Assembly (NCBI GenBank): GCA_964566575.1
Contig: CAZMKD010000024.1
Location: 14 to 64,013, forward strand
Reading direction: 5' to 3'
Length of the DNA stretch: 64,000 nt
Origin: an uncultured Verrucomicrobiota bacterium
GTDB lineage: Bacteria > Verrucomicrobiota > Verrucomicrobiia > Palsa-1439
Shown here: positions 1 to 47,552 of the stretch, piece by piece
Layout: each line of letters opens with the position of its first letter
Position numbering within the stretch: the first letter of the stretch is position 1
Notes under the pieces: model-generated
Databases searched by the model: none
Told to the model about the DNA's origin: nothing
Seen by the model: the letters and a program-made list of their open reading frames with translations, nothing else
Translations under genes and position numbers: made by a program

Positions 1-1
1 G

Positions 2-127
2 GAGCGCAATCGTGAACCACGGCGCTATGTGTGGCGAGCCGAAGGTGCCGCCATCCTTGAAAAGATCGTCCGCGCACGCGCTAAACTCGAAGAAATAAAA
101 CCAGACACTTCAAGGACAGCACACTAG
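2..127 (+). CDS. C-terminal fragment of an upstream ORF that runs off the window start (…RYVWRAEGAAILEKIVRARAKLEEIKPDTSRTAH*)
   Basis: Frame +2 is open from the window edge to a TAG at ~125; no start codon is visible; composition is ordinary. Confidence 0.25.
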   Translation, partial: ERNREPRRYVWRAEGAAILEKIVRARAKLEEIKPDTSRTAH

Positions 128-180
128 CCGGTCACGTTCATGGCACACGGCGCGTCACTGCCAGCGAGATCACGGCGACA

Positions 181-918
181 GTGAACAAGGCGTTCAACTC
201 ACAATCTACATTCACGCCGCACATCAATATGCGGACGGCAACACCGGCTCCAAAAGTTGACGGCACGAAGTTGCTGGCCGGTATCGTCGAGCGCGGCGCG
301 GACTTCACTGAGGCGGAACTTTGGGAGTCATCGCCCGTGCGGATTGACTGGACGCCCGAACAAGATGCCGTGGAGGTCTTGCGACGGTTGTATCAACCCA
401 CCGACCGGCTATTCATCGGCACGCGGTACGATACCGGCGTCGAGTACGTCTTGACTGTCGCGGACTGGTTGAAGCGTTTTGAACGCGGCGCGAAGTTACC
501 GGAACACATCATCCCGAACCCGTTGACCGGCGAACAAGGATTGACCAAAGAGGGTAAGCCGAGTTACCGCGCCGACGATTGCGTTGCTCAATTCCGATTC
601 GCGGTTGTCGAGTTTGACGAAATGCGCCGCGACCAGCAAATCCGTTTTTGGGCTGGCGTGAAACTTCCGGTTGTGGCGTTGCTCGACTCAGCGGGAAAGA
701 GCGTTCACGGCTGGATTAAAATTAACGCTGTTAATACTGCCGACTGGCAACGGCGCGTCGAGGGCAATCTGTTCGCCATGTTGACCGCCATCGGCGCGGA
801 CAAGGCTTGTAAGAACGAAGCGCGGTTGTCCCGGATGCCCGGCCACTACCGCACCGAAAAACAACGCTGGCAACGTGTGCTTTATCTCAACCCAACCGGA
901 GGCCAGGTCATTCCATGA
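181..918 (+). CDS. Primase-like (prim-pol / PriCT-like) replication protein of a mobile element
   Basis: 245-aa ORF whose stop overlaps the next start (ATGA); composition and neighbourhood (immediately upstream of a DUF3631-type NTPase) are typical of phage/island primase modules; assignment by resemblance only. Confidence 0.5.
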   Translation: MNKAFNSQSTFTPHINMRTATPAPKVDGTKLLAGIVERGADFTEAELWESSPVRIDWTPEQDAVEVLRRLYQPTDRLFIGTRYDTGVEYVLTVADWLKRFERGAKLPEHIIPNPLTGEQGLTKEGKPSYRADDCVAQFRFAVVEFDEMRRDQQIRFWAGVKLPVVALLDSAGKSVHGWIKINAVNTADWQRRVEGNLFAMLTAIGADKACKNEARLSRMPGHYRTEKQRWQRVLYLNPTGGQVIP

Positions 919-2420
919 AAACGATCACCGCCGAAGAGATGTTGAACGAGCAAGCCGCCGAAGTGGGCGCGGCAAGTCTGGACGCCTTCACTGAAACTTA
1001 CCAGCAACTCGCCAAGCTGCCGTTGGCTGAGTACGACCGCCAACGCAAGACTGAGGCGAAGCGGCTGGGGATTCGCACCGGTACGCTGGACGCCGAAGTT
1101 GCGCGTCGCCGAGAGACTACCGCCGATGCCAACATGCAAGGCCGAGCCGTCGAATTGGCGGACTTGGAATTGTGGCCGACGCCGGTGGACGGCGCAGAAG
1201 TGCTGGCGGAAATCGCCGAGACGATCACCAACTACGTTGTGCTGCCCGCTGGCGCTGCCGATGCAATCGCCGTCTGGGTGGCACACGCCCATGCCTGCGA
1301 CGCATTTCTACATACGCCTCGACTTAACATTCAGTCGCCGGAAAAACGCTGCGGTAAAACCACGTTGCGTGACGTGCTTGCCACGCTTGTTCGGCGTCCG
1401 CTGACGACCGAAAACCTCACCACCGCCGTTTTGTTCCGCCTGATTGAGAAATATCAACCGACCGTGCTGGCCGATGAATACAATGAGTGGCTGCATGAGA
1501 ACGATGAACTGCGCGGACTGCTGAACGCCGGCCACAAGCGCGGCGGGCGCGTGTACCGCTGTGAAGGTGACTCCAACGAGGTTCGCGGATTCAACGTCTT
1601 TGCCCCGGTTGTATTGGCTGGCATCGGTAACCTGCCGGGAACACTGCACGACCGCAGCATCGTCATCAAGCTGGTGCGTGCCAAGCCCGGCGAGGTCAAA
1701 GCCGGATTCGATTCGCGCCGGACACAAGCCGAGACGGAGCTTTGCCGGAAGCTGGCTCGCTGGTGTGCCGATAATGCCAAGCAAATCGAAACGACTGACC
1801 CGACCTTGCCCAACGGCGCATTCAACCGGCTGGCGGACAACTGGCGTCCGCTCTTTGCCATCGCCCAGGTTGCCGGCGGCGACTGGCCGCAACGTCTTGC
1901 CCGCGCCTTCGCGTTGCTCACGACGCAAGAGGATGCCGACGCGCATGGCATCGGCGCGATGTTACTGGCGGACATCCACGCCGCCTTCAAGGATGCTGCC
2001 GCGGACCGCATGTTCAGCAAGTCGCTGGTTGAATCTCTCGTTGCCATGTCTGACCGACCGTGGAGCGAGATTCGAGGTAAGACCCAAAAGCCGATCACCG
2101 AAAATTGGCTTGCTCATCGGCTGCGCGGCTTTGGTGTGTCACCGAAAACGCTACGCATCGGCACTGACCGCGCCAAAGGCTACGAGCTTCAAGACCTGAC
2201 CGAAGCCTTCGAGCGATACCTGCCGGAGCTTTCAGACCGTGACAGCGTGACAAGCCCGGTAAACATTGGTGCAACCTCGCACTCGCAAGCCGTGACATCG
2301 GCAAGTCCTGTCACGGTTCAAGACTCGCACGAAACCGTTGAAAACACCGCATTGTCACGGTGTCACGTTTCCAAAACCCCCGAACCGGAGATTGCCGCAA
2401 GTGACACGCTTCGATTCTGA
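915..2420 (+). CDS. DUF3631-family P-loop NTPase (C-terminal domain of phage/plasmid primase-helicase proteins)
   Basis: Walker A 'SPEKRCGKTT' and Walker B-like 'VLADE'; domain arrangement matches DUF3631 proteins of integrative elements; 4-nt start/stop overlap with the upstream primase-like ORF. Confidence 0.6.
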   Translation: MKTITAEEMLNEQAAEVGAASLDAFTETYQQLAKLPLAEYDRQRKTEAKRLGIRTGTLDAEVARRRETTADANMQGRAVELADLELWPTPVDGAEVLAEIAETITNYVVLPAGAADAIAVWVAHAHACDAFLHTPRLNIQSPEKRCGKTTLRDVLATLVRRPLTTENLTTAVLFRLIEKYQPTVLADEYNEWLHENDELRGLLNAGHKRGGRVYRCEGDSNEVRGFNVFAPVVLAGIGNLPGTLHDRSIVIKLVRAKPGEVKAGFDSRRTQAETELCRKLARWCADNAKQIETTDPTLPNGAFNRLADNWRPLFAIAQVAGGDWPQRLARAFALLTTQEDADAHGIGAMLLADIHAAFKDAAADRMFSKSLVESLVAMSDRPWSEIRGKTQKPITENWLAHRLRGFGVSPKTLRIGTDRAKGYELQDLTEAFERYLPELSDRDSVTSPVNIGATSHSQAVTSASPVTVQDSHETVENTALSRCHVSKTPEPEIAASDTLRF

Positions 2421-2652
2421 GACCTTGCTGGTCGAACTTCGTGCCGCAGGCGTCAGCTTGTGGATTGACGACGGCGACACCCTGGATGTCTGGCCGGCTT
2501 CGCGCCTGACCGCCGACCAAGTGGCCGCATTGAAGGCGCATAAGGCCGAGATCGTCGCCGCGCACCGCAAGCGGATGATTGACCTCTTGCCATCGGATGA
2601 AGTCTGTCGGGAGTGGCGGCGACGCTACGCTAACGCGGAGCAACGAGCATGA
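2401..2652 (+). CDS. Small protein with a TubC_N-like docking domain (LLVELRAAGVSLWIDDGDTLDVW…)
   Basis: GTG start at 2401 overlapping the end of the DUF3631 ORF; the motif resembles the TubC N-terminal docking domain found in phage and island proteins. Confidence 0.35.
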   Translation: MTRFDSETLLVELRAAGVSLWIDDGDTLDVWPASRLTADQVAALKAHKAEIVAAHRKRMIDLLPSDEVCREWRRRYANAEQRA

Positions 2653-2771
2653 CCGCGAGTTGATCTGCTTGCGCCCCTACCGGACGCGCCGGTTTCTTGT
2701 GATGAAGCTTCCGGCGGCTTGGGCGGTTTCTCAAGACTGTTGCTTCGAGCCGGATTTCGTGGAGCGATCTG

Positions 2772-3545
2772 CTACGGGAAACTCAACTTCTGCCCCAACA
2801 CTTTGCCTTTTAATTGCGTTAAGGCCATGTCCGTGCCTTGAGTGGTCACAGACAGACGTGTTCCAAGTGCTTCGCCAGTGCCAACCAAGCGCAACTTCGA
2901 CGTTTGCGTTGTCGCGTTATAGCTTCCAGTGACTTGGTAGCCCAATTCACGACTGTTGGACAGCGTTATTGTCCCGGTGCCCGTCAAAACGTTTCCCGAT
3001 GCCGTGAAGTCGATGTCCAACGACCAATCTCCGGTCATGCCGTCAGGCAACGGAAGCTCGACCTCACCATATTGCGTTAAGCATTTGTGACCGACGATAC
3101 AAACACGAGTTGAGATAGTTTCCAACACCGACAGCGTGGACGGCACGATAACTCCCGTTCCGCGCCCCTTGGCTGTACCGATGAATGAAACGCCGCCGGA
3201 TACGCCGCTTAAAGTGCCTTTCCATCCGCCCTTAAAACCAACGGTCGGAGGCTTAGAAAAAATGCGCCCTGATGTGTAACCCGTTCCTTCGATGTGATCG
3301 ACACCGTTATCGAAAACCTCTGATCGTACGCCGGTGATTCGCCCATTACTCTGCTGATGTGTGACCACAATTACAATGTCGTCCGTGTCCATACCGTTTG
3401 TATAGCTACCGCTTATGTCCCACAGAGGGAAGTCTGTGAACGGGTAGGTGAATTGACCACTGGACACTTGGGCAACGGCTGCACAAAAGCAGTGGAGCGA
3501 CAGGGTGACAAATCCGACAAGGGCAAGCGTGACTTTGCGTCTCAT
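2772..3545 (-). CDS. Secreted hypothetical protein (cargo)
   Basis: N-terminal signal peptide (MRRKVTLALVGFVTLSLHCFCAAVAQV), Gly/Thr-rich beta-type composition, no recognisable catalytic motif. Confidence 0.6.
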   Translation of the reverse strand: MRRKVTLALVGFVTLSLHCFCAAVAQVSSGQFTYPFTDFPLWDISGSYTNGMDTDDIVIVVTHQQSNGRITGVRSEVFDNGVDHIEGTGYTSGRIFSKPPTVGFKGGWKGTLSGVSGGVSFIGTAKGRGTGVIVPSTLSVLETISTRVCIVGHKCLTQYGEVELPLPDGMTGDWSLDIDFTASGNVLTGTGTITLSNSRELGYQVTGSYNATTQTSKLRLVGTGEALGTRLSVTTQGTDMALTQLKGKVLGQKLSFP

Positions 3546-3649
3546 AGTTCCTCCAACAACTTCGGGGTGACATGCCCAGTGTAAGTAATCGGTGTATCGA
3601 AAAGCAATAACGAAACTCTCATCTTTGGCTTTGTGACTGGTGCAACTCT

Positions 3650-4147
3650 TTAGGGTTTTGACGGCTCCGGTGTTGTCGTGAGATTGTTGTCTGTGGCGTC
3701 GGTAACCGCAGCCCCCTTGCCGTCCGCTACGTCCGCCGCCTGAATCGCCCGCAATGCCTCCCTTGCCTCCATCAACATCGCAGCCAGGTTGACTGTTACC
3801 GTCACGCCAGCCGGTACCTGGCCCATAAGTTCCAAGTGCTGCTGTGAGGCAATCTTTGAGGCAATGTAGGCTTGCATCGGTGACAGTTCGTGCGCTGTCT
3901 GCGCCGCTCGCTCTTGTGCCAATGCCGATAGCTCCAACGCCCGTTGTGCGATCAGCTTTTTTACCTGAGCGAAACCGTCCACGTCGCGGGTCAACAAGCG
4001 TCTGATCGTGGTGACATGGCAGCCCGCCATATCAGCGGTTTGCTGTAAGTCGCCTGTCTCCGCAAACGTCCGCAATGCTTTTGCTACGGCTAGCGGCTTT
4101 TGCTCCTCAATGCGTGGCCTTCTTGGTGGTTTCTTTTCTCCTGTCAT
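3650..4147 (-). CDS. HTH DNA-binding protein, possibly a small-terminase (TerS)-like or regulatory protein of the element
   Basis: HTH 'TADMAGCHVTTIRRLLT' near the N-terminus, ~165 aa, basic N-terminus; size and architecture resemble phage small terminase subunits (inference). Confidence 0.5.
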   Translation of the reverse strand: MTGEKKPPRRPRIEEQKPLAVAKALRTFAETGDLQQTADMAGCHVTTIRRLLTRDVDGFAQVKKLIAQRALELSALAQERAAQTAHELSPMQAYIASKIASQQHLELMGQVPAGVTVTVNLAAMLMEAREALRAIQAADVADGKGAAVTDATDNNLTTTPEPSKP

Positions 4148-4436
4148 GGTTCACTTCCTTTTTGGTTTTTTGCTTTTGATTTCGCGCGGTATCCGAACGG
4201 GACTCCTACGGGGTATGCCGCATCCTGCAACACCCTTCCCCCTACCTCACTGTTAGCCATCGCCAAAAACTTGCAACCCAAACTTGCAACCCGACAGTGA
4301 AAACCAAGAGCGCACTGGATAACGCGAGCAACACTTCAGCCTGAGACGCGAGCGACTCGCAAGCCTTGTCACACTAGGCTTTGATGCCAGCAGTTGCCGA
4401 CAGAGGACACGCGACACACTTTCGGGAAAATCCTCA

Positions 4437-4485
4437 TGGCGGAATTAGGAAACCGACGCTCTATCCATCTGAGCTACGGGAGCGC
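4437..4485 (-). pseudogene. tRNA-Arg(CCU)-like 5' fragment (acceptor strand, D-arm, anticodon loop) lacking the T-arm and 3' acceptor strand; probable att-site remnant
   Basis: Minus strand reads GCGCTCCCG-TAGCTCAGATGGATAGAGCG-TCGGTTTCCTAATTCCG: a canonical D-arm (GCTCAG-TGGATAGAGC) and a UUCCUAA loop with a CCU anticodon; no T-arm (GTTCGA) or matching 3' acceptor strand downstream. Confidence 0.45.
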
Positions 4486-4529
4486 AGCAACCTAATCTAT
4501 CTTAAGCCGGTAACGGCGCGAGCCAAAAG

Positions 4530-4826
4530 TTAGCTACTCCACACCATCGCGTCGTCCACCGGTAAGCTTTGCTCGACGGCCTGCGGACGCGGCTCCGGCT
4601 GCTGGCGACGCGGCGCGCTCAGGATTTGCACGGGCTGGCCGTTGGCTTGTTCCCGCTCCTTGGTGAAGATGTCGAGCAGACGCTCGACCGGGCCACTGGG
4701 ATTGCGGCGGCGGTTTTCGAGGTGCTTGACCTGTTTGACGGTGACGCCGAGCCAAGTGGCGAGTTGGGCTTGGGTGATTTGCGCGTGCGAGCGCAACTGA
4801 CGGATGTTCTCAGCGTTCCACTCCAT
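4530..4826 (-). CDS. XRE-family (Cro/C1-type) HTH transcriptional regulator
   Basis: 'ITQAQLATWLGVTVKQVKHLENRRRNP' is a classic HTH_XRE motif; 98 aa. Confidence 0.75.
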   Translation of the reverse strand: MEWNAENIRQLRSHAQITQAQLATWLGVTVKQVKHLENRRRNPSGPVERLLDIFTKEREQANGQPVQILSAPRRQQPEPRPQAVEQSLPVDDAMVWSS

Positions 4827-4900
4827 AGGATCCGGTGTACCGGGTTCCTCCTTGTGGTTATCTTTCTAGCAGAACGCCGCGCGAATTTCAAGCCCAAGAC

Positions 4901-5956: not shown

Positions 5957-6270
5957 ACACGCAGATCGGCGTGACCGAGGCAGAGCGCGCACAGTTGCAG
6001 CGGCTACTGATCACCGTCGAAATGGAACGCGATCTCGCCGAAGCCGGTCGCACCGACATGGAATCCGCCACCGCGCCGTATGACGTCGTCGCCAATCTCA
6101 TCCAGCAAGTCGTCGCCGCGCGTCCGCGCAAACTGCTCGAAGCCGTCGCCGAAGAAATAGCCGATGCGATCCTGTCTCGCAGGCTGGCCGTGGCGGTAAC
6201 GGTCGAAGTGAAGAAGTTCAGCATTCCGCACTCCCAGTACGTGTGTGTCCAAATCCGCCGGACGCAATGA
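5923..6270 (+). CDS. folB: Dihydroneopterin aldolase
   Basis: 'IKDLEVNTQIGVTEAERAQLQRLLITVEM…' matches the FolB fold signature; ~115 aa. Confidence 0.75.
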   Translation: MDRITIKDLEVNTQIGVTEAERAQLQRLLITVEMERDLAEAGRTDMESATAPYDVVANLIQQVVAARPRKLLEAVAEEIADAILSRRLAVAVTVEVKKFSIPHSQYVCVQIRRTQ

Positions 6271-6947
6271 ATGCTCGGTATCCCATCGTGGTCTTGATCG
6301 CCGGGTGGCTGTGGCTAGGCGCTGCATTGGCCGACACGGTGCGCCTGAAGACCGGTGAGACCTTCGAAGGCACGATCCTGAGCGAAACGGACACCAAGGT
6401 CAGCATCGAGGTTGAATACGCCGCCGGGACGATTCTCTCGACGGAAACATTCAACAAGGGCGAGATCGACGAAATTATCCGGTCCACACCCGAACAACTG
6501 GCGCAGCGCGCCATGGAACGCGCCTACGCGAACACGCAGAAATACAAATTAGATTCCGCGCACAACTACACTCTCAACTACTACCAACTCGTCAGCGACC
6601 GTGTGTTGCGGCGTTTTCTTGCTGATTACCCGGACTCGCCTTACACGAATGCAGTCCAAGCCAAACTCAAAGAGTGGATCGCAGAACAAGGCAAGGTGGC
6701 CAGCGGTTTGCGCAAGTACCACGGCGTCTGGATACGGGCGGAAGAAGCCGCTCGACGGAATGCGGAAGCCCAGCCCCGATCGGCCATGGATCACGGCAGG
6801 GCGGCGGAAGCTGACTCGGCTGTCACCCCAGCCCAGAAAGACATCGTTGACGAAGTCGGGGAACTTCTCAGCCGATATTGGGTCATCGCGATCGTGGTGG
6901 TGGTGGCGATGCTGTGGCTGTGCGTGCACATCTTTACGCACGATTGA
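6267..6947 (+). CDS. Hypothetical secreted/membrane-anchored protein with a C-terminal TM helix
   Basis: N-terminal hydrophobic segment 'IVVLIAGWLWLGAALA', C-terminal TM 'YWVIAIVVVVAMLWLCV'. Confidence 0.55.
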   Translation: MNARYPIVVLIAGWLWLGAALADTVRLKTGETFEGTILSETDTKVSIEVEYAAGTILSTETFNKGEIDEIIRSTPEQLAQRAMERAYANTQKYKLDSAHNYTLNYYQLVSDRVLRRFLADYPDSPYTNAVQAKLKEWIAEQGKVASGLRKYHGVWIRAEEAARRNAEAQPRSAMDHGRAAEADSAVTPAQKDIVDEVGELLSRYWVIAIVVVVAMLWLCVHIFTHD

Positions 6948-6957: not shown

Positions 6958-7524
6958 TCAGCGCCAGTACTTGTACATATCGTCGGCATCGGTCTTCTCG
7001 AACGTCGGAAACCGCGTGTGTCCGGGATCGGTCGGCGCGATGCCGAGCCAGCGGTTTTCCACGGCTTGATACATCGCGATGGGCACGCGGTCCATCGGCA
7101 GGATCAGCTTCTGCCGGTCGTAATCCGACCACACCTTGGGGATGATCACGGACAAGCTGGTCATCACGGTGCACACAAGAATCGTGGCGGACATCGCGCC
7201 GAAAATCAGTCCGACAACGGCATCAATCACCCGTGGATACCGGGGTGTCGACTTTCGTTCCACGAGCGCCGTTAACACTATCAGCGGAGTCGCGCCGACC
7301 AGAAACATCACCCAGTATGCCCCGAAGGCTGCGTAGCCGTTCTGCCCGTTGAACCACGGGGAGAGCAACCGGGTGACCAACCACCAATACCGGAGCGCGA
7401 TCATCATGGCCAGAAACTGAAACACTGTGCTGGCCAGTTCGTAAAACGCGCCAAAATGCATCCCCAGCCGCGCGAACCCCAGGATGATCAAAAACGCCAA
7501 GACACTGATGACGATTTCCACCAT
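6958..7524 (-). CDS. cvpA: CvpA-family membrane protein (colicin V production protein homologue)
   Basis: Four-TM architecture and CvpA-like N-terminus (MVEIVISVLAFLIILGFARLG…). Confidence 0.7.
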   Translation of the reverse strand: MVEIVISVLAFLIILGFARLGMHFGAFYELASTVFQFLAMMIALRYWWLVTRLLSPWFNGQNGYAAFGAYWVMFLVGATPLIVLTALVERKSTPRYPRVIDAVVGLIFGAMSATILVCTVMTSLSVIIPKVWSDYDRQKLILPMDRVPIAMYQAVENRWLGIAPTDPGHTRFPTFEKTDADDMYKYWR

Positions 7525-7525: not shown

Positions 7526-9322
7526 TCAACTCGCTTGCAGCACCTCCTCCGCCGACGTCACGCCGCTCAGAATCTTCTCGACGCCGTCCTCGCGATACGG
7601 CCGGTACGACTGCTGGCCGGCCAGTTCCTGCAACCGCTGCTGGTCCACTCCGTCATGAATCGCCTTGCGTAGCGGCTCGCTCAGCACGAGCAACTCGAAG
7701 ATGCCGGATCGCCCCTGATACCCGGTCATGTCGCAATGGTCGCACCCACCGGCCCGATAAATCGTGTTGCCGTCCGGCAACGTCAACCCAATCTCGCTTA
7801 GCTCCGTTCCTTTCGTCAACACCGCCTCGCGACAACGCCGGCAAAGCACCCGCACAAGTCGTTGCGCCACCACCATCAGTAGCGAGGAAGCGATTTGATG
7901 GCGCTCGATGCCCATGTCTTCCAATCGCATCACCGTGCCGACGGCGTCCTGCGCGTGCACGGAACTAAACATCAAATGGCCGGTCAGCGCCGCCCGCGCG
8001 GCGATCTTCGCCGCCTCCGCGTCGCGCATCTCGCCGACGAAAATCACATCCGGGTCCTGCCGCAAGATCGACCGTAGCCCGGATTCATACGTGACGCCGG
8101 CCTTGACGTTGACGGCGATCTGGGTCGCGCCGGTCAATTCGTACTCGACCGGATCCTCAATCGTCATGATGTTCAATCGCTGCGCGTCCAGCCGGCTCAA
8201 CGCAGCGTACAACGTCGAGGTTTTCCCCGAGCCGGTCGGCCCGGCCACGAGGATCATGCCATTGCGTGAGTGAATCACCCGGTCAAACTGCTCCATCATC
8301 GGCATCGGCATACCCAAATCGCTCAAGGCCAACACACCGCTTTGCCGGTCGAGAATTCGCAGCACCAATTTCTCGCCATGAATCGCGCTGGCCGTCGCCA
8401 CACGGAAATCAACCTCACCGGCTTTCGTCCGCACGCGGAACCGGCCATCCTGGGACTTACGTCGCTCGGCGACGTCGATTTGCGCCAGCGCCTTCATTGC
8501 CGCCGCTACGTGGAGTCCGTCGGCTTTGTCGAACGTGAACCGCTCGTGCATTACGCCGTCGATGCGAAACCGCACCCGACTGCCATGATCCGTCGGTTCG
8601 AGATGCACGTCGCTCGCGCGTTGCGCCAACGCTTGCTCCAACACATCGCGCGCCGCCTCAATGCCGGTCATCTCGGGCGAGTCTTGTTTGATGGCGATCG
8701 GGTTGCGATTGGCATCGAGAAATTCCAATTGAACTCCTGCCGTCGATCCTGCGGACGAAGGTGACACCTTGGCTCGGCCGCCGAATAAGCTCCGCTTCTT
8801 CGGTACCTCGTTCGGTTGCAATCCGGCCACCCGACCGCCGAGGCTGCGCAGATCTACCGCGCGGCGACGCCGGGCCATTCGCTTGAGGAGGTAGATCGCG
8901 AAACCAAGCCCCGGCAATAGCAACACATCGGCGTTAGTCCGGAGAATTTCTGACCGGGTGCCTTTTACGTCGAGCCCGACCCAAAACAGCATCGCGACCC
9001 ACAGCGAACTCACCACCGTGAAGCCCAGCAGCCAGAAATCCATGCTCCAGCGATGAACGTAGCGCGGGGGCAGGCTTTCCTCGGCCAGTGCCGGTTCAGG
9101 CGCGGCGACAACGGGATGGACGACCTTCGCGCCGTCGATGACTTCCACTTCAGCAATGGGCAGCGTGATCACGCCGTACGACACTTTCACCTGCAGATTG
9201 GTCTTGTCGCGGTTGAGTATGGTAGCGTTGCGATAGATTAATCCGCCGGTAAGTCGAATCTCGGACGCCCATGCGGCACTGGCGCAAGCCAGCAGGCCAA
9301 GCAGGGTGAGACGCACGCGCAT
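7526..9322 (-). CDS. GspE/PilB-family secretion ATPase with an atypical N-terminal signal peptide, periplasmic segment and TM region
   Basis: Walker A 'GPTGSGKTSTLYA', Asp/His boxes, C-terminal tetracysteine 'CRRC…CDHCD'; N-terminus 'MRVRLTLLGLLACASAAWA' followed by the hydrophobic helix 'FWLLGFTVVSSLWVAMLFWVGL'. Confidence 0.85.
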   Translation of the reverse strand: MRVRLTLLGLLACASAAWASEIRLTGGLIYRNATILNRDKTNLQVKVSYGVITLPIAEVEVIDGAKVVHPVVAAPEPALAEESLPPRYVHRWSMDFWLLGFTVVSSLWVAMLFWVGLDVKGTRSEILRTNADVLLLPGLGFAIYLLKRMARRRRAVDLRSLGGRVAGLQPNEVPKKRSLFGGRAKVSPSSAGSTAGVQLEFLDANRNPIAIKQDSPEMTGIEAARDVLEQALAQRASDVHLEPTDHGSRVRFRIDGVMHERFTFDKADGLHVAAAMKALAQIDVAERRKSQDGRFRVRTKAGEVDFRVATASAIHGEKLVLRILDRQSGVLALSDLGMPMPMMEQFDRVIHSRNGMILVAGPTGSGKTSTLYAALSRLDAQRLNIMTIEDPVEYELTGATQIAVNVKAGVTYESGLRSILRQDPDVIFVGEMRDAEAAKIAARAALTGHLMFSSVHAQDAVGTVMRLEDMGIERHQIASSLLMVVAQRLVRVLCRRCREAVLTKGTELSEIGLTLPDGNTIYRAGGCDHCDMTGYQGRSGIFELLVLSEPLRKAIHDGVDQQRLQELAGQQSYRPYREDGVEKILSGVTSAEEVLQAS

Positions 9323-9323: not shown

Positions 9324-9923
9324 TCAATCGTCCGCAGGTTCGTTCGAGGCAAGTTTCTCCGTGGCGAGACTGTGGTCGCCTTGAGCGGCGATCATGCCGG
9401 CGCGGCGGGCGTACTCAAAGATGCCACCGGCATCAATCACTGGCCGGGCGTCGCCGAGCGGTTTGGTCGCGTATTTCTTGCCGGCAACCTTCAGCGTATT
9501 GGCGTCGAGGTCGAGTTCGACTTCGTCGCCGGTCTTCAACGTCTCGCAAAGCCGGTCACTGGATTCGACGGGGTAAAGCTCGCCGGTCGCGACGCAGTTG
9601 CGGAAAAAGATGCGGGCGAAACCCTCAGCGATGACGGTCTGGCAGCCGGTCGCGCCCAGCGCGATGGGGGCATGTTCGCGGGAGCTGCCGCAGCCAAAAT
9701 TGCGACCGGCAATGACAATTGGGTACGCTGTTTTCAATTGTGCGTCGGTCACGTACCGGGCGGGGTACTGGTCGCGGGGCAGGCCGCATAAGGCGTAGCT
9801 GCCAAGCTTCTCATATTCCTCGGCAATGGTGGGAACGAGGTTCAAATATTGCGCCGGGATGATTTGGTCAGTGTCGATATTGTCACGCACGACGTACACC
9901 GGGCCGCGGATGATATGACTCAT
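9324..9923 (-). CDS. leuD: 3-isopropylmalate dehydratase / aconitase-family small subunit
   Basis: 'MSHIIRGPVYVVRDNIDTDQIIPAQYL…GRNFGCGSSREHAPIAL' is the LeuD signature; ~199 aa from an internal ATG; no leuC is adjacent. Confidence 0.8.
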   Translation of the reverse strand: MSHIIRGPVYVVRDNIDTDQIIPAQYLNLVPTIAEEYEKLGSYALCGLPRDQYPARYVTDAQLKTAYPIVIAGRNFGCGSSREHAPIALGATGCQTVIAEGFARIFFRNCVATGELYPVESSDRLCETLKTGDEVELDLDANTLKVAGKKYATKPLGDARPVIDAGGIFEYARRAGMIAAQGDHSLATEKLASNEPADD

Positions 9924-9973: not shown

Positions 9974-11254
9974 GTGGAGAGCATGTCAGAGTATAGCGAC
10001 CCAGAACGGCTGTATACATTGGATTACCCGGACGGCTGGTTGCCGTTGACACACGAAGGCTCACCGCATGTCACGCTGGCAAGCCTGACCACGGGCGGCT
10101 ATCTCAAGATTGAGGCTTACCAATTTGAACAACCCAAGACAGACGAGATGCGTCCCGAGAAGACGCTGCGGGCGTTGCTGGACTGCGAACGGCGGACGTG
10201 GCCGCAGGTCGGCGAACCGTTGATCCGGTGCCGGACGCGCGAGGGAATGGCGATTGCCATGGCCACCTACACGCGCATCGAGATGGAGGGTGACGATCAT
10301 GCGGCGGATTTCGGGCACACCCAAGCGTGGATCTTCTCGCGCGGCGACGTGCAGGTGCGCTGCTTGTTCCGGTGCCGCAGCACCGATGCGGGCGAGGACG
10401 ACGATGAATTGGAGCAGATCATCAATACCCTTTGTCTGACCAACACCCGCCACCTCGATGCGGCGAGTTTTACGAGTTACTACTACAGCCTGCTCAAGCG
10501 CCACCGGCCGCAGTTGGCTGTGAAACGGCCCAACGGACTGGCGATCACAATGTCCGACGGACAGATCATTTTGCTCGAGCACTTGTTCAACCACTACCTC
10601 CAAGAGCCCGACCACATGGACGAACTTATTGAGTCGCACATCGGGTTGTTGGATTTCTGCGGCGATGACGTGCCGGATCTGACGAATTTCAAACTCATCA
10701 AACCGCTGCTGTTCCCTAAACTGTTCCGCGCGGCGTCGAGCGGACAGCCGCCGCACCGGGCCAAGCTCTGGCCGGGTTTGGCGATAGGCGCGGTCATTCA
10801 GGGCACCGTGTTCAACTACGGCGTCAATAACGAGCGGCTCAAGAGTTGGAGCGTGAGTTCCCTCAGCGACATTAAAGAGCATCTGATCGAAAACCTCTAC
10901 AACATCTCGCCGGTCGCTCCGCGCGGGCTGCGCGATGAGGACGGCACGACGCAGGCGATCAGCTACGTGGATCATCCGTTCAGCGCGTCATTCGTGTTGT
11001 TCCAGGATTTCTACGAAACGACGGCGCATAATCTCGACGCCGACGAGTTCCTCGTGGGGTTGCCGGACCCGAGTTGTGTGTCCTGCTTCCGCAACGACGA
11101 TCCGCGGTTCGTTGTCCAGCACACCGCCATGCTCCGGTGGGACTATCACCGCAGCGTCGAGAAACTCACCGACACCATCTACCTTGTGACCGGCCCGACG
11201 GTGAAGGAAGTCAAACCGTATGACATCCTCCACTGTTGCGTGAAGAAAGCTTGA
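9974..11254 (+). CDS. Hypothetical protein (C-terminal half possibly DUF1444/YtpQ-like)
   Basis: 426-aa ORF with ordinary composition; the antisense ORF 10061-10975 is Arg-rich and judged spurious. Confidence 0.5.
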   Translation: MESMSEYSDPERLYTLDYPDGWLPLTHEGSPHVTLASLTTGGYLKIEAYQFEQPKTDEMRPEKTLRALLDCERRTWPQVGEPLIRCRTREGMAIAMATYTRIEMEGDDHAADFGHTQAWIFSRGDVQVRCLFRCRSTDAGEDDDELEQIINTLCLTNTRHLDAASFTSYYYSLLKRHRPQLAVKRPNGLAITMSDGQIILLEHLFNHYLQEPDHMDELIESHIGLLDFCGDDVPDLTNFKLIKPLLFPKLFRAASSGQPPHRAKLWPGLAIGAVIQGTVFNYGVNNERLKSWSVSSLSDIKEHLIENLYNISPVAPRGLRDEDGTTQAISYVDHPFSASFVLFQDFYETTAHNLDADEFLVGLPDPSCVSCFRNDDPRFVVQHTAMLRWDYHRSVEKLTDTIYLVTGPTVKEVKPYDILHCCVKKA

Positions 11255-11303: not shown

Positions 11304-11455
11304 TCAGATTAACTCATCCTCCCGTTTCGTGCGCGAGGTTTTCGGCTTCTTGGTCTGCGTCGCTTTCGCCTCTGCGCCGGCGCGTTCAAGGTTCAACTTC
11401 AAGAGTCGTTCGAGGATATGTTCGTCGGTGAGGTCGGTGGGCCAGCCGTAGTCGG
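11304..11455 (-). pseudogene. Diverged remnant of the 3' end of an MmeI-family RM/MTase gene (…DYGWPTDLTDEHILERLLKLNLERAGAEAKATQTKKPKTSRTKREDELI*)
   Basis: ~75% aa and ~70-80% nt identity to the last ~45 codons of the RM gene ending at 12225; no upstream body in frame. Confidence 0.5.
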
Positions 11456-12238
11456 CGGAAGCCGGCGGGGAAATTTCTCCGGGTAGCGCTCGCACAGGAA
11501 GCCAATGCGGTATCCCATCGCGGACAAGCTGATCCCTTGTTCCTGGGCCAATTGCCGTACCGTCGCTCCGGACTTCCAGCGCTCGCTGAGCCGGTTGATG
11601 GACGGCAACCGAGTTTGCCAATACCGCCGCCACCGCCGTTCCCTGGCTTGGCGCCATACAGAAGTCATGGCCACCCGGCGCGGAAACTTGTGCGGATACA
11701 GCTTGCGCCAGTAGCCAATCCGCACGGCGATACAAGCCCGGTTGACCCCGTATTCTTCCGCCAATTGACGCAGCGACGCCCCGGCCTTCCAGCGGGCGCT
11801 CAACCGGTTGATGGCGGGCAACTGGCTTGCACGGCGCTGCTGCTTCCGGAGTTCCCGCGCGAGCTTTTCCTGCTCGCGGCGTTCGGCCCGGGCGCGAATG
11901 GTCCCCTCGTGGCGAAGGACCTGGCTCGACGGGTACCCCAGCCCCTGACGGATTTGTCGGACGCGTTCGCGGCCGAGACCATACCGGCGCGCCAGCACGA
12001 TGTCGGTCGTCGTCAATAGTTCCTTTTTCAGTTGCTGGTACTCCGGCGCGCCGAGTTTTTGTAAACGATAGCCACGGCGCCGCAACAGGCGTTGCTGGTG
12101 CAAAAACAGGTAAACGCGATTCCCGTCCAAGTGGAGCCGTTTGGCTGCGACCGTCCCCGACAACTGTTGCTGGCAGTACAGTCGCCGAATCGCTGCCTCT
12201 TGCTCCGCCGTGAATCGCTTGCGCCTAGAGCATTTCAT
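11399..12238 (-). CDS. Tandem-HTH repeat protein (three sigma-70 region-4/transposase-HTH-like modules); start overlaps the RM stop
   Basis: Internal repeats 'LPAINRLSARWKAGASLRQLAEEYGV…YPHKFPRRV' and 'LPSINRLSERWKSGATVRQLAQEQGI…YPEKFPRRL'; ATG embedded in 'GATGAAATGCTCTAG', the last codons of the RM gene. Confidence 0.6.
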   Translation of the reverse strand: MKCSRRKRFTAEQEAAIRRLYCQQQLSGTVAAKRLHLDGNRVYLFLHQQRLLRRRGYRLQKLGAPEYQQLKKELLTTTDIVLARRYGLGRERVRQIRQGLGYPSSQVLRHEGTIRARAERREQEKLARELRKQQRRASQLPAINRLSARWKAGASLRQLAEEYGVNRACIAVRIGYWRKLYPHKFPRRVAMTSVWRQARERRWRRYWQTRLPSINRLSERWKSGATVRQLAQEQGISLSAMGYRIGFLCERYPEKFPRRLPPTTAGPPTSPTNISSNDS

Positions 12239-15200
12239 CGGCGTGTTTGGCGCGTGAGGTTTTCGGTTTCTTGGTTTGCGCTAACTTTGCTTCAGCGGCG
12301 GCACGTTCGAGGTTCAACTTCAGGAGGCGCTCCAGGATTTGTTCGTCGGTGACATCGGCGGGCCAATCGTAGGCGGCGGCGACGGCGGCGTCCAGTTTCT
12401 TGTGCGCCAAATCCAGCCAGGTCGGGCGTTCGTTGTAGAGATTGGTGAGCGTGCGTTTCTTGAGCTTGCCGGCGCAGTCGGCGTCCTTCGGGACGAGGCG
12501 CGGATACCGAGCAACGCCGATCTTGTAGGCCGCGTCACCTGACGCGGCGGTATTCCCGGATACGCCCGCTGAGGTCAGCGGGCCTACAACATACCGGGCC
12601 CAAGGCCCGTTCGCGCTGGCCGGGAACTCCAGCACTTCCTCGCACGTCCATTCCGGTGGATTGAGCCAGCGCTCGCGCAACTCGTTCAACTCTTTCGCGG
12701 CGGCGGCAATCGCGGTTTCCTGCTCCGGCGTCGCCTGCGGAAACAAAAACGTCTCGAAACATTCGGTCGGGTTGTAAGTGCGGCGTTCGCCACCGTGTAG
12801 CGCACAGGTTGCCGTAGTCCAGACTTCATGGATGCGTGACTGGAGAACTCCGAAATGGAAGTCGTCAGCGAAGGCGATGGCGATGACTTTCGAGTCCGGT
12901 AAGATGACGCTGTCCTGCCAAACGAAGATGCGGTACTTGGCGACGCGCGAAGTCGCGAGGTACCGGCGTGAACCCACAATGCTTTCCCTGAACGCCGGTA
13001 GCGTTTCACCCAGCAACCACCAATGCTCTGCGCGTGTCCTGCGGTTGTTCTTTTCGCGTTCAGGCTTCACGTGTTCAACCACGTGCCGGAAGGGCGCTTC
13101 GTAGAGCGCGGCTTCTTGCTGCGGTGTGCCGACGCCGAAGTCCACAATCCACCGGTTGGAACATTCGCGCACCAAGTCGCTGCCGTTGCGGAATGGGCGG
13201 AGCACGTCGCTGGTGGGTTTGCCGTGTGGAGTCGGCATCTGGAGCATGGCGATGGCTTGTTCTTCGGTGATGTCGAAATCGCCAACCTTGGTCGTGCCCA
13301 TGAAACAAAGGTTTTTGTTGCGCGGAGAGGAACTGCTTGCCGGTGGTGTCGAGGCCACTGGACAAGTCCGCGTTGATTTCGGCGATGTCTTTGCCGTCAA
13401 GAGTTGGGTTGTCGGGAGTTTTCGCGTTGCCGAATCCGACCATGCAAATGCGGATGGCCGTGCCTTCGTCCCACCAGTCGCGGTCGGAGATGGCGAAGAA
13501 GATTTTGCCGGTCTCTTTAATGCGCTCGAAGGCGTGGCGGGAACTGACTTGTTTCGACCCGGTGGTGGCAAGCAAACCGGCACGCTGACATTTGCCGCCA
13601 GCAATCAGTTCGCGGGCTTTCTCAAACCAGTAACAACAGAAGTCCGAAGTGGCTGGCAAACGGTCGCCAAACGTGTCGAAGATGGCTTTCGTGTATTCGT
13701 CACCGAGTTCTGTCCGCAGGCGTTTGTTGCCGAGGAACGGCGGATTGCTGACAATGACATCACACTCCGGCCAGTCGCGTTCGGTGTAGAATTTCAGCGC
13801 ATCTTCTTCTTCGTGTTCCTTTGCGCGCGCCTGCTTCAACGTCTTGGCCTTGCTCCGGTAATGCGGGACTACCAGCGCGTCTTCGTTGTGAAATCCGTCG
13901 AGGACTTGTAGGACGGGCGAGCGATCGAGCGGGAAGCCTTTGTCGCGCAGCCATTGGAGGTAGCCGATCTGGACGGAGACTTGCGCCAGTTCGAAGGCGT
14001 AGGGATTGATCTCGATCCCGCGCAGTTGTTGGACGCTGACTTGCGGCGTGAACTGGAAGCCGAGTTGCGTGGCGAAGGCGATGACTTCCTTTTCGAGACT
14101 CAACAGAAGTTGGAGCGAGACGTACAGGAAGTTGCCGCTGCCGCACGCCGGGTCGAGCACGGTGGTGGCACTGAGTTTTTTGAGGAACTTCGCGAGCCGG
14201 TCGCGGTCGGCGGTCGTGCCTTTGCCTTTGGCGTAGGAACGAATGAGGTCGCGTTTGATCCCCGTCCATTCGCGGCGCAGCGGTTGCATGAGGACGGGTT
14301 CGACGAGCGTCTTGATGTCGTCTTCGCTTGTGTAGTGCGCGCCGAGTTGGGCGCGGAGTTTGCCTTCGCCGTCGAGCGCGCGCTCGAACAGCGTGCCCAT
14401 GATGCTGGGTTGGACGTATTCCCATTCGCATTCGGCGGCAGCAGCGAGCGCGCGGATTTCGTCCTCGGTCAGTTCAAAGACGGTGGCTTCTTCAAAGAGG
14501 TGGCCGTTGAAATGCTGGATCTTGTGCAGGCCGAACGTGCCGCCCTTGGCCATTTTGCGGAACAGTTCTTCGAGGCGCTCGGCGAAGAAGCGCGGGTCGT
14601 CTACGCCCTGCTTGGCGAGGTCGCGGAAAATATCCTTGGGCAACAGGCCCACGTCCTCGGCAAAGAGACAGAAGATGATGCGATTCAGGAAGCGGGCGAT
14701 CCGGAGATTCTTCTTCTGCGCGACATGCACTTCCTTCCGTGTCCGGGCGTTGCTGAGTTCGACCGACTCGCGTTCCTGCAGCGAGCGGGCAACGGCGGCG
14801 ATTCGGCCGGCAAGGTCTTCGGTGACTTTGCTCGCGGTGTGCAGGGGTCGCAACGCTTCGGGGTCGGCAAAGACACCACGCAAAATCCGCAGACTCTCCT
14901 GCATGTCGATGGTCGCGTTGGTGAATTCGTGCGTCTCCTGCACCGCGCCATTGAAGTTGGTGCGGACGATGTAGCGGTCGAAATCGCAGACGACGAGCAG
15001 CGGCGGATTCAGAAGCGATTCGCGATACCGGAGCAGTTGCGTGTACGCGGCGTTGAGATTCTTCTTCTTGCCCTTGTACTCCCACGCGAAACAGTCCTTC
15101 TTCCACACATCGGCGAAGCCGCGGTCACCGGGTTCACCGTAGTCAGTATCCGCCTCCTTCACCAGCAGCAATTCGGCATCCTTGACGACGCGTTTCTGGA

Positions 15201-15387
15201 AGCAGAATGACTCGCTACCGGTCGGGTCGGCCTCGGCGGGAGTTGACTGGCCGAGCAACCGGCACAGGTCGTTGAAGTGTTCCTGGTAGGCAGACGACTC
15301 CTTACCAGTGTAGGCGCTCCACTTCCTTTTGAACTGTGCCCACGTCAATCCGCCCATAGCGGCAGAATCGGCATCCTTCCGTGACAT
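12225..15387 (-). pseudogene. MmeI-family type IIL restriction-modification enzyme (PD-(D/E)xK nuclease, N6-adenine MTase and TRD in one polypeptide), interrupted by a frameshift near 13312-13316
   Basis: N-terminal 'GFADVWKKDCFAWEYKGKKKNL' (D…EYK nuclease motif), MTase motif I 'LDPACGSGNFL', motif IV 'VSNPPFLG', conserved C-terminal 'TDEQILERLLKLNLERA'; the two ORFs (13075-15387 and 12225-13604) overlap in different frames, with out-of-frame Arg-rich tails. Confidence 0.75.
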
Positions 15388-29995: not shown

Positions 29996-30635
29996 CGCAG
30001 TTCCATCAACGCCTGGAAATCGGCATCGTGTTCGACGTTTCTAGGATGAAACAGGAATTCATGCAACCCCGATGCCGGCAATTTCGCTATCGCGACGCGT
30101 ACTTCGGCGGCGTTCATCCGAAACGTGCGGTGGACGCCCCACAATGTGTTGCTCGTGCGAAACGGACTGCGCGGCCACCAACCAGCGCGGCGCACCCAAC
30201 CGTCGAACGACGCCGGCAACACATCGAGCATCGCGCGGAAGACGAACGGATGTGTGTGCAGATGATGATGGGAATTGACGAAGGCGCAGCGCAATCCCGT
30301 CGCTTGAAATTGTTCCCATTGCGCCGCGACTTCGTGCCGCATCAACGCGCGCGCCTTGCCAAACAAGCCGATGGCCCAGCCGGCTTTCGCGTACGAATCG
30401 CCCCACGGCCACTCGGCGCACGTGACCGGCCGCGAATGACATACGTGCAAATGCCAACCCACTTGCAGCGCCGGCGTCGCGACGGCGAGCGTCACGGCGT
30501 CGTCCGTGGCCGGCTGTCCCATCATCAGACTTGCGCCGTGCAACGCGCCGTCGCGGTGGGCGCGCACGATGGCGGCGTTGGCCGCGTGGGTGATGCCGAA
30601 ATCGTCGGCGATGAAAAAGACTTCTCGATTCAAGA
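29992..30635 (-). CDS. YdjC/ChbG-family carbohydrate deacetylase (HpnK-like)
   Basis: 'EVFFIADDFGITHAANAAI…' is the YdjC N-terminal motif; probable TTG start near 30635 to avoid overlapping the divergent epimerase gene. Confidence 0.6.
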
Positions 30636-30655
30636 CGGAACGGTATACTGCCGCA

Positions 30656-31681
30656 ATGCTCGCGGGTTCGCAATGCCTCGTTACCGGCGGCACCGGTTTC
30701 ATCGGCCGCTACGTCGTGCGCCGCCTGCTCGCCCACGGCGCAAACGTGCGCGTGTCCTGCCGGTCGCGCACGAAGGCGGAACGACTCTTCGGCAACGCCG
30801 TCGAGACCGGCGATTCCTGCCGGGGCGTTGAGATTGTCTTCCATCTGGCCGGCGTCTACCAGTTTGGCCGACGCGCCACGGCGGAGATGTTCGCCACGAA
30901 CGTCCGGGGCACGGAGCGTCTTCTCGAAGCCGCGTGGGACGCGCGTGTCGAGCGATTCGTCCACATCAGCTCCTCTGGCGTTCTCACCTGCAACGGCGCA
31001 CCGATCAGCGAAAGCAGCTTTCCCCTCTACGTTTCACCACGCGAGTCGTACAGGCACTCGAAGTGGCTCGGCGAACTCGCCGCGTTGGCAGCCGCCAAAC
31101 GCGGCTTGCCGGTAACCATCGGCAGCCCGACAAGTCCCCTCGGCGCGGAAGATGAGACGCCGACGCCGACCGGTCGAATCGTCGCCGACTTCGTGGCCGG
31201 TAGGTTTCCGTTCTCGACGCGAACAGCGTTAAACTTTGTCGACGTGACCGAGCTAGCCGACGGCATCCTGGCGTTGGCCAATCGCGGTCGCACTGGCGAG
31301 CGTTACATCCTCGGCCATCACAATATTTGGCTTACGGATTTCCTCCAAGTCCTCGAACGTTGCTGCGACTTGCCACGCTCGGAGCGTGGCCGGCCCGCGC
31401 CGCGCCGGGAATTACCGTGGCCGGTCATTGCCGCCGCGGCCGGCATTGGTGAAGTGGCCGGGGCGTCACGAGTGTGCTGGGAAACGGCGCGGGGCGCTCG
31501 CAAACGCCAATTCTTCGACCTCCGCAAGGCTACCGACGAACTCGGTTGGCAGGGCCGGACGCCGATTGAAACCAGCGCTCGCGCCGCGGTTGCATGGTTT
31601 CGCCGTCAGCCGGTACGCGAGCCACTGGTGCTCGCCCCAGTCCGAGCAGGGCAAGCCGAGACGAATGTCGCTGCATCCTGA
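30656..31681 (+). CDS. NAD-dependent epimerase/dehydratase (HpnA-like sugar epimerase)
   Basis: Rossmann motif 'LVTGGTGFIGRYVVRRLL', catalytic 'YRHSK'. Confidence 0.75.
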   Translation: MLAGSQCLVTGGTGFIGRYVVRRLLAHGANVRVSCRSRTKAERLFGNAVETGDSCRGVEIVFHLAGVYQFGRRATAEMFATNVRGTERLLEAAWDARVERFVHISSSGVLTCNGAPISESSFPLYVSPRESYRHSKWLGELAALAAAKRGLPVTIGSPTSPLGAEDETPTPTGRIVADFVAGRFPFSTRTALNFVDVTELADGILALANRGRTGERYILGHHNIWLTDFLQVLERCCDLPRSERGRPAPRRELPWPVIAAAAGIGEVAGASRVCWETARGARKRQFFDLRKATDELGWQGRTPIETSARAAVAWFRRQPVREPLVLAPVRAGQAETNVAAS

Positions 31682-33423: not shown

Positions 33424-33501
33424 GAGTTCCTCCTGTTATTGAATTGTATTTTACAGTCCTGGCAGGTCTTATTCAAATCAAAACATGCGACTGCCGATGG
33501 C

Positions 33502-34299: not shown

Positions 34300-34521
34300 G
34301 TGAGACTCCTCATGGGTTTCTACTGCTGCACACCCTCGGGTGCAACCAAAATGCAACTGCACTCTTGCCCCAGCGCGCCGCTCGTTGCACAATCGGATGC
34401 GAGCGATGACCACCGAGGGCTTTGATATGGAGTGCTGCGGCTTGCCGCAGCTTTGCTGTTCCGGCTGTACGACGAGCCACGCCCGAAGAAAGCGGTGGCA
34501 AGCCACCGCACTCCAAAACCC

Positions 34522-36709: not shown

Positions 36710-36715
36710 TTATAT

Positions 36716-36985: not shown

Positions 36986-36991
36986 GACGTC

Positions 36992-46141: not shown

Positions 46142-46292
46142 GGCACGCCGAGGATACGTTTGGACACACGGCAGCGTCAAGCGCGTCATCGGCGGCGCGG
46201 AACAGATTTTTCCGATTGACACCTCGCCGGTGATTGGCAAGGATGCCGGTATCTTCGGGTCGCACTGAAGTTAGTACAAGGGTTGGCGGTAG

Positions 46293-46916: not shown

Positions 46917-47003
46917 AAACCATTCGGAATCGGATCTCGCTCCCGTTGGCTTGCAGTTGTCGAACGCAGTCAAACCAAACATAACCGATAAGGAGAAGCG
47001 ACT

Positions 47004-47477: not shown

Positions 47478-47552
47478 ACCACCGGGCAGATTCGCTCCGC
47501 GTGTTGGCATCGGCGGCGTTGCCTTCCCGGTAATTCCCGGTATCATCGGGTC

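Follow-up and report, generated by a model that had tools for sequence, protein, structure and literature searches.

A GspE/PilB-type ATPase with a predicted membrane anchor of its own, encoded next to cvpA in Verrucomicrobiota

The motor ATPases GspE and PilB are soluble hexamers that are recruited to their machines by GspL or PilM, and the gene of the assembly ATPase is usually followed directly by gspF or pilC. Hexameric ATPases that are tethered by an N-terminal transmembrane (TM) segment of their own are known from VirD4/TraD and FtsK, which provide an analogy for a self-anchored ring, and a two-helix membrane module, PLDc_N (PF13396), usually drawn as two TM helices, is found for instance at the N-terminus of cardiolipin synthase. 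Here we describe a gene that departs from the GspE/PilB scheme, located in a stretch of 64,000 nucleotides (nt) from an uncultured Verrucomicrobiota bacterium (contig CAZMKD010000024.1; the whole analysed stretch is called the window in the following). The gene (7526..9322 on the (-) strand; ATG at 9322, TGA at 7528-7526) encodes 598 amino acids (aa) plus stop, and joins an ATPase core to a conserved N-terminal extension that begins like a signal peptide and contains a TM helix. A sequence-only reading of this stretch had pointed out the open reading frame (ORF) with its N-terminal MRVRLTLLGLLACASAAWA followed by SE, a hydrophobic helix and an ATPase core, and had proposed a self-anchored GspE/PilB-type ATPase; the ORF is real, and both the signal-peptide-like N-terminus and the TM helix have proven to be conserved. 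We favour, at slightly better than an even chance and with the claims on its architecture included, that it is a self-anchored GspE-type motor which works together with CvpA in a type-II-secretion-like process.

The catalytic part of the protein comprises residues 199-598 (7529..8728), where a FEFLD strand is followed by the N2 and C-terminal ATPase domains, as evident from Pfam and PDB matches. The Pfam family T2SSE (PF00437) covers residues 225-595 with 399.8 bits against a cut-off of 24.9 (E = 1e-119), and the PDB matches, namely V. cholerae EpsE/GspE, Thermus PilF and PilB (~1e-85 to 1e-96), each begin at the N2 domain. A full-length search has returned more than 120 clusters of homologues of ~600 aa with 50-82% identity at 97-100% query coverage, which mostly originate from metagenome-assembled genomes of Verrucomicrobiae/Verrucomicrobiia and which, where they carry a name, are only called 'GspE/PulE family protein'; an exact look-up of the window protein has retrieved no database record. 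Full-length homologues have been aligned in sets of 19 and 91 sequences, and the invariant positions and family averages given here for the ATPase refer to the larger set. The Walker A motif GPTGSGKT (residues 361-368, 8219..8242) is invariant in this alignment except for S365, which is nearly so, all four cysteines of the tetracysteine zinc motif (C494, C497, C527 and C530; 7733..7843) are invariant, and the same holds for E389, D390, G430, E431, R433, D434, T447, G448 and H456. The completeness of the core, tetracysteine motif included, had been claimed before and is supported by these matches. No Pfam match to the recruitment domain T2SSE_N/N1E/GSPII_E_N (PF05157) has been found in the window ATPase, whose residues 1-198 are occupied by anchor and tether. 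To judge from its sequence, the protein belongs to a distinct clade among the assembly-type GspE/PilB ATPases.

The N-terminal extension starts with a putative Sec-type signal peptide (residues 1-19, 9266..9322) that has been recognised by eye from its n-region MRVR, a hydrophobic core and the residues AWA in front of SE, and cleavage is predicted after about residue 19. The segment is present in relatives as well, for example with SLFA in front of SEVKL, and its n-region has a net charge of +1.2 on average. The LLAC sequence of the signal peptide has also been considered as a lipoprotein signal, a reading that was rejected because its Cys is not conserved. The signal peptide is followed by a small, five- or six-stranded beta-barrel of putative Sm/SH3-like fold (residues 20-64, 9131..9265), which is predicted to be periplasmic and is covered by the conserved block ASEvKLKxGxxYxDVTILxRD...VPYGxIxLPLxxVxSIDGV. 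An AlphaFold2 single-chain model, computed from the alignment of 91 sequences with a mean pLDDT (predicted local distance difference test) of 78, shows the signal-peptide helix, then the barrel from residue 20 to 62 (pLDDT ~83) and a disordered region from 63 to 90; folded in isolation, the barrel reaches a pLDDT of 89. Foldseek has matched it in the PDB with Hfq/Sm proteins, a designed SH3 barrel and periplasmic YgdR at TM scores of 0.72-0.78 and E values of only 0.05-0.1 (best 0.046), with a root-mean-square deviation of 0.9 Å over 42 residues for Hfq. As such E values are expected for a domain of 50 residues, 'Sm/SH3-like small barrel' is to be read as a description of the fold and not as a family assignment. 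A profile search has located the same type of barrel behind signal peptides in ~300 other proteins, often in repeats and in some cases along with outer-membrane beta-barrel or HEAT domains, which fits an extracytoplasmic location; in one relative with such repeats, Hfq, LSM and RimP-SH3 are matched in Pfam below threshold. The average net charge of the barrel is -2.3.

A Pro-rich linker of variable length (residues 65-91, 9050..9130) and low pLDDT leads from the barrel to the membrane, and its insertions and deletions stay in frame throughout the 91 sequences. It ends in the juxtamembrane motif YVHxWxM, in which Y88, V89, H90, W92 and M94 are conserved. This motif, in its longer form YVHxWxM(D/E) (residues 88-95, ~9038..9061), lies on the predicted periplasmic side of the first TM helix and is conserved without obvious reason. 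The helix itself, TM1 (residues 92-118, 8969..9049), has been modelled as a continuous helix of 27 residues with a pLDDT of 87-91, and contains an invariant W108 as well as the nearly invariant W114 and D118. Its apparent insertion energy, estimated on the Hessa 2005 scale, is -1.9 kcal/mol as the family mean and -0.2 kcal/mol for the window protein. TM1 is succeeded by a predicted cytoplasmic loop and the hydrophobic hairpin VLLLPGLGFAIYLL, followed by KRMARRRR (residues 119-157, 8852..8968), as delineated by the AlphaFold2 model, the charge pattern and the insertion energy. The model places a helix at 123-135, a break at P137/G138 and a further helix at 139-157, and the hairpin consensus VLLLPGxGFxxYL contains the invariant P137, G140 and Y144. 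The second hydrophobic stretch (133-146) is weaker and runs into RRRR; its uncharged run averages 14.9 residues (range 10-17) and its mean insertion energy is +6.0 kcal/mol. The loop after TM1 contains 3.2 K/R on average, and the charge after the hairpin amounts to +4.2 and subsequently to +6.6.

Being too short and too polar to cross the bilayer, the hairpin is probably re-entrant or interfacial. As a signal peptide combined with two spanning helices would put the ATPase into the periplasm, which is unworkable, we have settled on one spanning helix and a hairpin at the cytoplasmic face. The 'one or two TM helices' that had been proposed for the protein are consequently narrowed down to one, the second being most likely the non-spanning hairpin, and the predicted topology comprises a barrel outside, a single spanning helix, the hairpin, a basic tether and a cytoplasmic ATPase. 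Charge and hydrophobicity agree with this layout, in that they assign the barrel to the outer side and the K/R-rich segments on either side of the hairpin to the inner side. The tether (residues 158-198, 8729..8851) is modelled as disordered (pLDDT 28-45) and carries a net charge of +4 to +7. Within this otherwise disordered region the motif GRVAGLxPxEAPKKRGLFGGR (residues 163-183, ~8774..8836) is conserved and resembles a partner-docking motif, and a further conserved motif, EFLDxDGNPIxIR, runs into the ATPase. Membership of the anchor in PLDc_N has been rejected as unproven: the window ATPase has no match to this family at E <= 1, two of the 19 relatives match with E = 0.05 or weaker, and the only link is an indirect one via P0186, a protein found by the N-terminal profile, which passes the PLDc_N cut-off. 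Relatives that keep the anchor without signal peptide and barrel have also been found (P0211, P0251 and P0256), with a second helix that is more hydrophobic in P0251 and P0256 and not in P0211, and one may speculate that the barrel was added to an older two-helix anchor.

Directly downstream of the ATPase gene follows a cvpA-like gene (6958..7524, (-)), whose product of 188 aa belongs to the four-TM Colicin_V family and carries a conserved C-terminal tail of 60 residues. The junction reads TGA (7528-7526), t, ATG (7524), which amounts to a gap of 1 nt and corrects the 2 nt given earlier. For comparison we have collected six homologue contexts, to which a metagenome scan using the N-terminal profile added 53 loci, mostly from related soil and peat Verrucomicrobiota, and have examined them with local profile searches; two contigs are counted twice (L005 = L042 and L011 = L056). 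A cvpA-like gene on the same strand directly 3' of the ATPase has been observed in 56/56 loci that extend at least 200 nt beyond the ATPase stop, and the gap measures 1-3 nt in 47 of them. A Colicin_V gene is likewise the next gene after five distant anchored ATPases of ~33-45% identity, at a distance of 7-194 nt. These are P0160 in L066 (where the gap of 194 nt is taken from called genes), the anchor-only P0251 in L067, P0347 in L068, P0173 in L069 and P0211, for which only a gene table is available, and the surroundings of these distant pairs are unrelated housekeeping genes (truB, ribF, recO, hisG and CCG-domain genes). The synteny in relatives hence agrees with the suggestion that cvpA is a genuine partner of the ATPase. 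The one unanchored homologue that was inspected, a Chthoniobacterales protein of 418 aa (L003), shares 59% identity in the core and starts at FEFLD; no cvpA has been found beside it. A profile search that used five distant anchored ATPases as query was dominated by PilB/GspE proteins of ~1000 aa from Patescibacteria (Moranbacteria and others; P0272-P0346), which, to judge from their length and very high profile scores, may each contain a tandem pair of ATPase cores.

The window cvpA product matches Pfam Colicin_V (PF02674) with 45.4 bits against a cut-off of 29.3, and precomputed Colicin_V matches, some of them marked as weak, are available for the partner in every related locus; no NCBIfam family matches the window protein at E <= 0.001. 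The partner proteins comprise 187-212 aa; they have four hydrophobic helices, the last of which (TM4) is preceded by a loop rich in K/R, and a C-terminal tail of ~60 residues that ends with DPGHTRFPTFEKxDxDDFxKYW. A conserved Asp and a GxxxG motif have been described in TM4 of CvpA (Warr et al., bioRxiv 10.1101/2020.09.25.314492). G106xxxG110 is conserved in 7/7 partners, and the preceding position is occupied by D in four, N in two and G in one of them. According to the positive-inside rule and the topology that the same study describes for E. coli CvpA, the tail is probably periplasmic. CvpA is required for colicin V export and for deoxycholate resistance, and genetic evidence ties it to sigma-E activation (bioRxiv 10.1101/2020.09.25.314492).

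On the other side of cvpA lies a convergent gene (6267..6947, (+)) for a further barrel-domain protein of 226 aa, in which a signal peptide and a barrel precede a helical region and the chain ends in a TM anchor; the gene adjoins the ATPase-cvpA pair in most relatives. Its barrel is related to the N-terminus of the ATPase (BLASTP E = 2e-4; hhalign probability 95%, E = 4e-8), and the layout of its family consists of a signal peptide, the same type of barrel, a helical or coiled-coil region, a Pro-rich stretch and the C-terminal TM anchor. Three membrane proteins with predicted periplasmic parts, the ATPase, CvpA and this barrel protein, are consequently encoded side by side. The neighbour is 226 aa long in the window compared to ~380-415 aa in L001, L002, L005 and L007; about 170 middle residues with the coiled-coil and Pro-rich parts are missing while signal peptide, barrel and C-terminal TM helix are retained, which looks like an in-frame deletion. 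Two tandem copies of the neighbour are present in L002, L005, L017, L033, L039 and L058.

As we picture the mechanism, the N1E recruitment domain would have been lost and the ATPase would bear a membrane tether of its own. The Sec signal peptide would export the small barrel to the periplasm, the one TM helix would bring the chain back to the cytoplasm, the Pro-Gly-kinked hairpin would dip into the inner leaflet, and the basic tether of ~40 residues would keep the ATPase ring beneath the membrane, such that the built-in anchor could substitute for GspL/PilM-type recruitment. The ATPase gene would be co-transcribed, and probably translationally coupled, with cvpA; ATPase, CvpA and the barrel-domain periplasmic neighbour may form one inner-membrane complex, and in these Verrucomicrobiota ATP hydrolysis would power export of a type-II-secretion-like or endopilus-like kind. 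That the ATPase touches CvpA, and what kind of substrate would be exported, belong to the proposed part of this picture. Genes of a type II secretion system (T2SS) have been found near the pair in two divergent lineages: a T2SSF (GspF) gene lies convergent to cvpA in L011, and T2SSG, N_methyl and T2SSK genes are located 2.8-6 kb downstream of the pair on the contig of P0211. An 'unrecognised membrane process' had been suggested for the ATPase; with GspF in the one and GspG/pseudopilin/GspK genes in the other lineage, a type-II-secretion-like role is no less probable than an entirely novel process. Since every characterised tetracysteine GspE/PilB-type ATPase, to our knowledge, drives a platform of the GspF/PilC family, we have rated such a role as the most likely one.

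Several observations weigh against this assignment. In the 64-kb window, tblastn has detected no T2SSF, and neither a second T2SSE nor a prepilin motif has been found; families of T2SS or type IV pili (T4P) in Pfam have not been seen in the ~47 larger ORFs that were scanned, the small ORFs not all having been scanned. To this extent, the lack of neighbouring pilin, secretin and platform genes that had been stated earlier is confirmed. In the flanks of 68 related loci (L004 left out) no prepilin motif has been found either, and the link to type II secretion rests on two lineages as a result of the lack of system genes in the window and in nearly all flanks. Regular-expression hits to the prepilin motif at related loci have been discarded as false positives, which occurred only in the gene of a ribosome hibernation factor. 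The NCBIfam models of GspE (TIGR02533; 453.4 against a cut-off of 630.25) and PilB (TIGR02538; 417.9 against 675.65) rank first and second for the core, and both remain under their cut-offs. Many of the 56 cvpA-linked loci are close relatives and a few are duplicate contigs. Topology and CvpA contact rest on inference, and the hairpin resembles PLDc_N: if it does span the membrane, the model with a signal peptide fails.

According to an alternative, the anchored ATPase and CvpA are a stand-alone machine unrelated to pili and type II secretion, with CvpA as the polytopic partner that is turned or gated by the hexamer, and this machine could serve the export of a small peptide or lipid, envelope maintenance or signalling. 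That cvpA takes the usual position of gspF or pilC and is the sole invariant neighbour speaks for it, as do the missing N1E domain, the scores under the GspE and PilB equivalog cut-offs, the failure to find T2SS/T4P genes either in the window or in the flanks of almost all related loci, and the connection of CvpA with colicin V export and the sigma-E response in E. coli. Against it stand the GspF/PilC-family platforms that characterised tetracysteine ATPases are generally known to use and the GspF or pseudopilin genes near the pair in two divergent lineages; furthermore, secretion genes are often scattered in these phyla, and their absence from the flanks is thus weak evidence. We regard this alternative as rather unlikely, yet as a serious rival. 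Closely related is the idea that CvpA acts as the dedicated partner or platform of the self-anchored GspE-like motor and forms with it and the barrel protein an unrecognised ATP-driven inner-membrane machine, which we put forward tentatively, as a possibility well short of an even chance.

Upstream, the ATPase gene is preceded by a gene for a LeuD-type small subunit (9324..9893, (-)) that scores above the cut-offs of Aconitase_C and TIGR02087 and stops 1 nt before the ATPase start. The sequence-only reading had correctly placed leuD upstream and cvpA downstream, as is evident from the Aconitase_C/LeuD and Colicin_V Pfam matches. Its 3-nt overlap with leuD turns out to be a gap of 1 nt (TGA 9326-9324, c, ATG 9322). 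No clear Shine-Dalgarno sequence has been seen before ATG 9322, and an alternative in-frame TTG start is present ten codons upstream at 9352, which would keep the same N-terminus; its use would result in a 29-nt overlap with leuD, and the ATG start gives none. No leuC gene for a large subunit adjoins the LeuD-type gene. Divergently oriented upstream of leuD lies a gene for a conserved protein of 426 aa without Pfam domain (p426, 9974..11254), which accompanies leuD in most relatives. In ~33 close relatives the gene order p426(-) leuD(+) ATPase(+) cvpA(+) barrel-TM protein(-) folB(-) has been retained. A gene on the opposite strand separates leuD from the ATPase in L007 and L055, leuD lies kilobases away in L059 and L022, and it has not been found in the flanks of L021, L044, L009, L011 and L066-L068, while cvpA stays attached; in L069 it is nearby again in a rearranged order. 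Considering that cvpA is kept where leuD breaks away, the conserved unit consists of the anchored ATPase and CvpA, and the adjacency of leuD, which had been taken as part of the arrangement, is lineage-specific synteny, with leuD as a passenger outside the conserved unit. A link of the ATPase to leucine or branched-chain metabolism through a leuD operon, as the 1-nt gap in the window, the immediate leuD neighbours in ~33 related loci and the nearby leuD in L069 might suggest, is very improbable in view of these displacements and losses with cvpA retained, and has no mechanistic rationale.

Regarding the extension itself, every N-terminal part of its 224 residues is conserved across both alignments. 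When 1.84 billion cluster representatives were searched exhaustively with a profile of residues 1-224, 17 clusters were recovered with E <= 1e-30 and 40 with E <= 1e-10, from which we conclude that the family is real but small, and the profile reaches ATPases that are pairwise only ~33-45% identical to one another (P0149, P0160, P0173 and P0347). That the extension is rare had been suggested by a word-indexed search with residues 1-232, which gave three matches, and has been corrected by the full-length and the exhaustive profile searches. On two long-read contigs from ENA (L001 and L002) the ATPase gene is split into overlapping ORFs by frameshifts, as is the p426 gene in L002; the fragments were the sole matches of the first N-terminal search and could mislead, and the frameshifts are likely assembly errors. 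The alignments indicate that the extension is translated and conserved as protein, not a chance elongation of the ORF. An annotation artefact, with the true start at an internal Met (e.g., M94 or M218) and an ordinary soluble GspE as product, is hardly credible: although the nearly invariant M94 immediately precedes TM1, no clear Shine-Dalgarno precedes ATG 9322 and the gene is in pieces on the two long-read contigs, residues 1-93 show protein-level conservation with a barrel pLDDT of 89 and in-frame linker indels in 91 sequences, the profile of residues 1-224 recovers full-length ATPases down to ~35% identity, a product starting at M94 would still be a membrane protein, and the split genes are found on contigs whose neighbouring genes carry frameshifts as well. 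The internal start that would have turned the protein into a conventional one is accordingly rejected.

A membrane-spanning GspE/PilB protein with a periplasmic domain would represent a different way to couple motor and envelope, and a ring with six tethers and as many periplasmic barrels would have an unusual geometry that needs explanation. The strict pairing with cvpA persists down to ~35% identity and in unrelated genomic contexts. As CvpA is a widespread inner-membrane protein whose role has stayed obscure since it was linked to colicin V export, its pairing with an ATPase is a new functional clue, and if CvpA should indeed act as a platform, this would be the first mechanistic handle on a family that is present in dozens of phyla. 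The findings also bear on secretion in Verrucomicrobiota that takes place without recognisable parts of the GspL/M type.

Beyond this locus, the window contains a gene of the MmeI family of type IIL restriction-modification enzymes (13075..15387, (-); MmeI_N, helicase spacer and methyltransferase), which overlaps an ORF at 12225..13604 that ends in the tail motif ILERLLKLNLERA.AEAK..QTKKPKTSR and is read as the C-terminal part of the MmeI gene, which a frameshift would then have split. The ILERLLKLNLERA tail motif occurs once more in the ORF 11304..11735 (-), apparently the remnant of a duplication. Over ~30500..48900 extends a biosynthetic cluster of a lipid or aryl-polyene-like type, with genes for an epimerase, a GT21 glycosyltransferase, a ketoacyl synthase, a FabA/ApeI-like dehydratase, two halogenase-like flavin (FAD) enzymes, a methyltransferase, two B12-binding radical S-adenosylmethionine enzymes and a protein of 1070 aa (38170..41382) in which an MMPL transporter is fused to a lipid A acyltransferase. 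Mobile-element-like content is present in 1..4900 and 62712..63821, including several ORFs without Pfam match, a DUF3631 protein at 915..2420, a short ORF at 4530..4826 that resembles an XRE-type helix-turn-helix protein by eye, and an insertion-sequence transposase (DUF772 and DDE_Tnp_1) at 62712..63821.

Whether the self-anchored ATPase is a common, characterised variant has a divided answer, as it is widespread in one bacterial group and carries only generic names there, with no describing paper found. Full-text literature searches, which do not extend to most subscription journals, have likewise turned up neither a GspE/PilB protein with a membrane anchor nor a gene pair of CvpA with GspE/PilB. 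Compared to GspE/EpsE and PilB/PilF, the window ATPase has the same core of N2 and C-terminal domains with Walker A and tetracysteine motif; unlike these proteins, it has a signal peptide, a barrel, a TM helix and a hairpin instead of N1E, its next gene is cvpA and not gspF or pilC, and it scores under the equivalog cut-offs. As in the pairs of GspE with GspL or PilB with PilM/N, the hexamer would be kept at the inner membrane on its cytoplasmic face, with a link to a periplasmic domain, whereas the link would here be covalent within one polypeptide with its N-terminus outside, and without homology to GspL or PilM. The partner resembles E. coli CvpA in passing the Colicin_V cut-off, in its four predicted TM helices and in a GxxxG motif like the one described for CvpA, and differs from it by the conserved tail of ~60 residues, by the lack of an NCBIfam match and by its constant linkage to an ATPase gene, for which no earlier report on CvpA was found in the literature searches. 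VirD4/TraD and FtsK belong to a different branch of the ATPase superfamily, show no homology in the anchor and have neither a signal peptide nor a periplasmic barrel. The anchor, finally, has a motif pattern similar to that of PLDc_N, with the W...D that ends helix 1, the basic loop and the LLLP.xG..Y in helix 2, and it departs from this module in a second helix whose shortness and polarity appear to prevent it from crossing the membrane.

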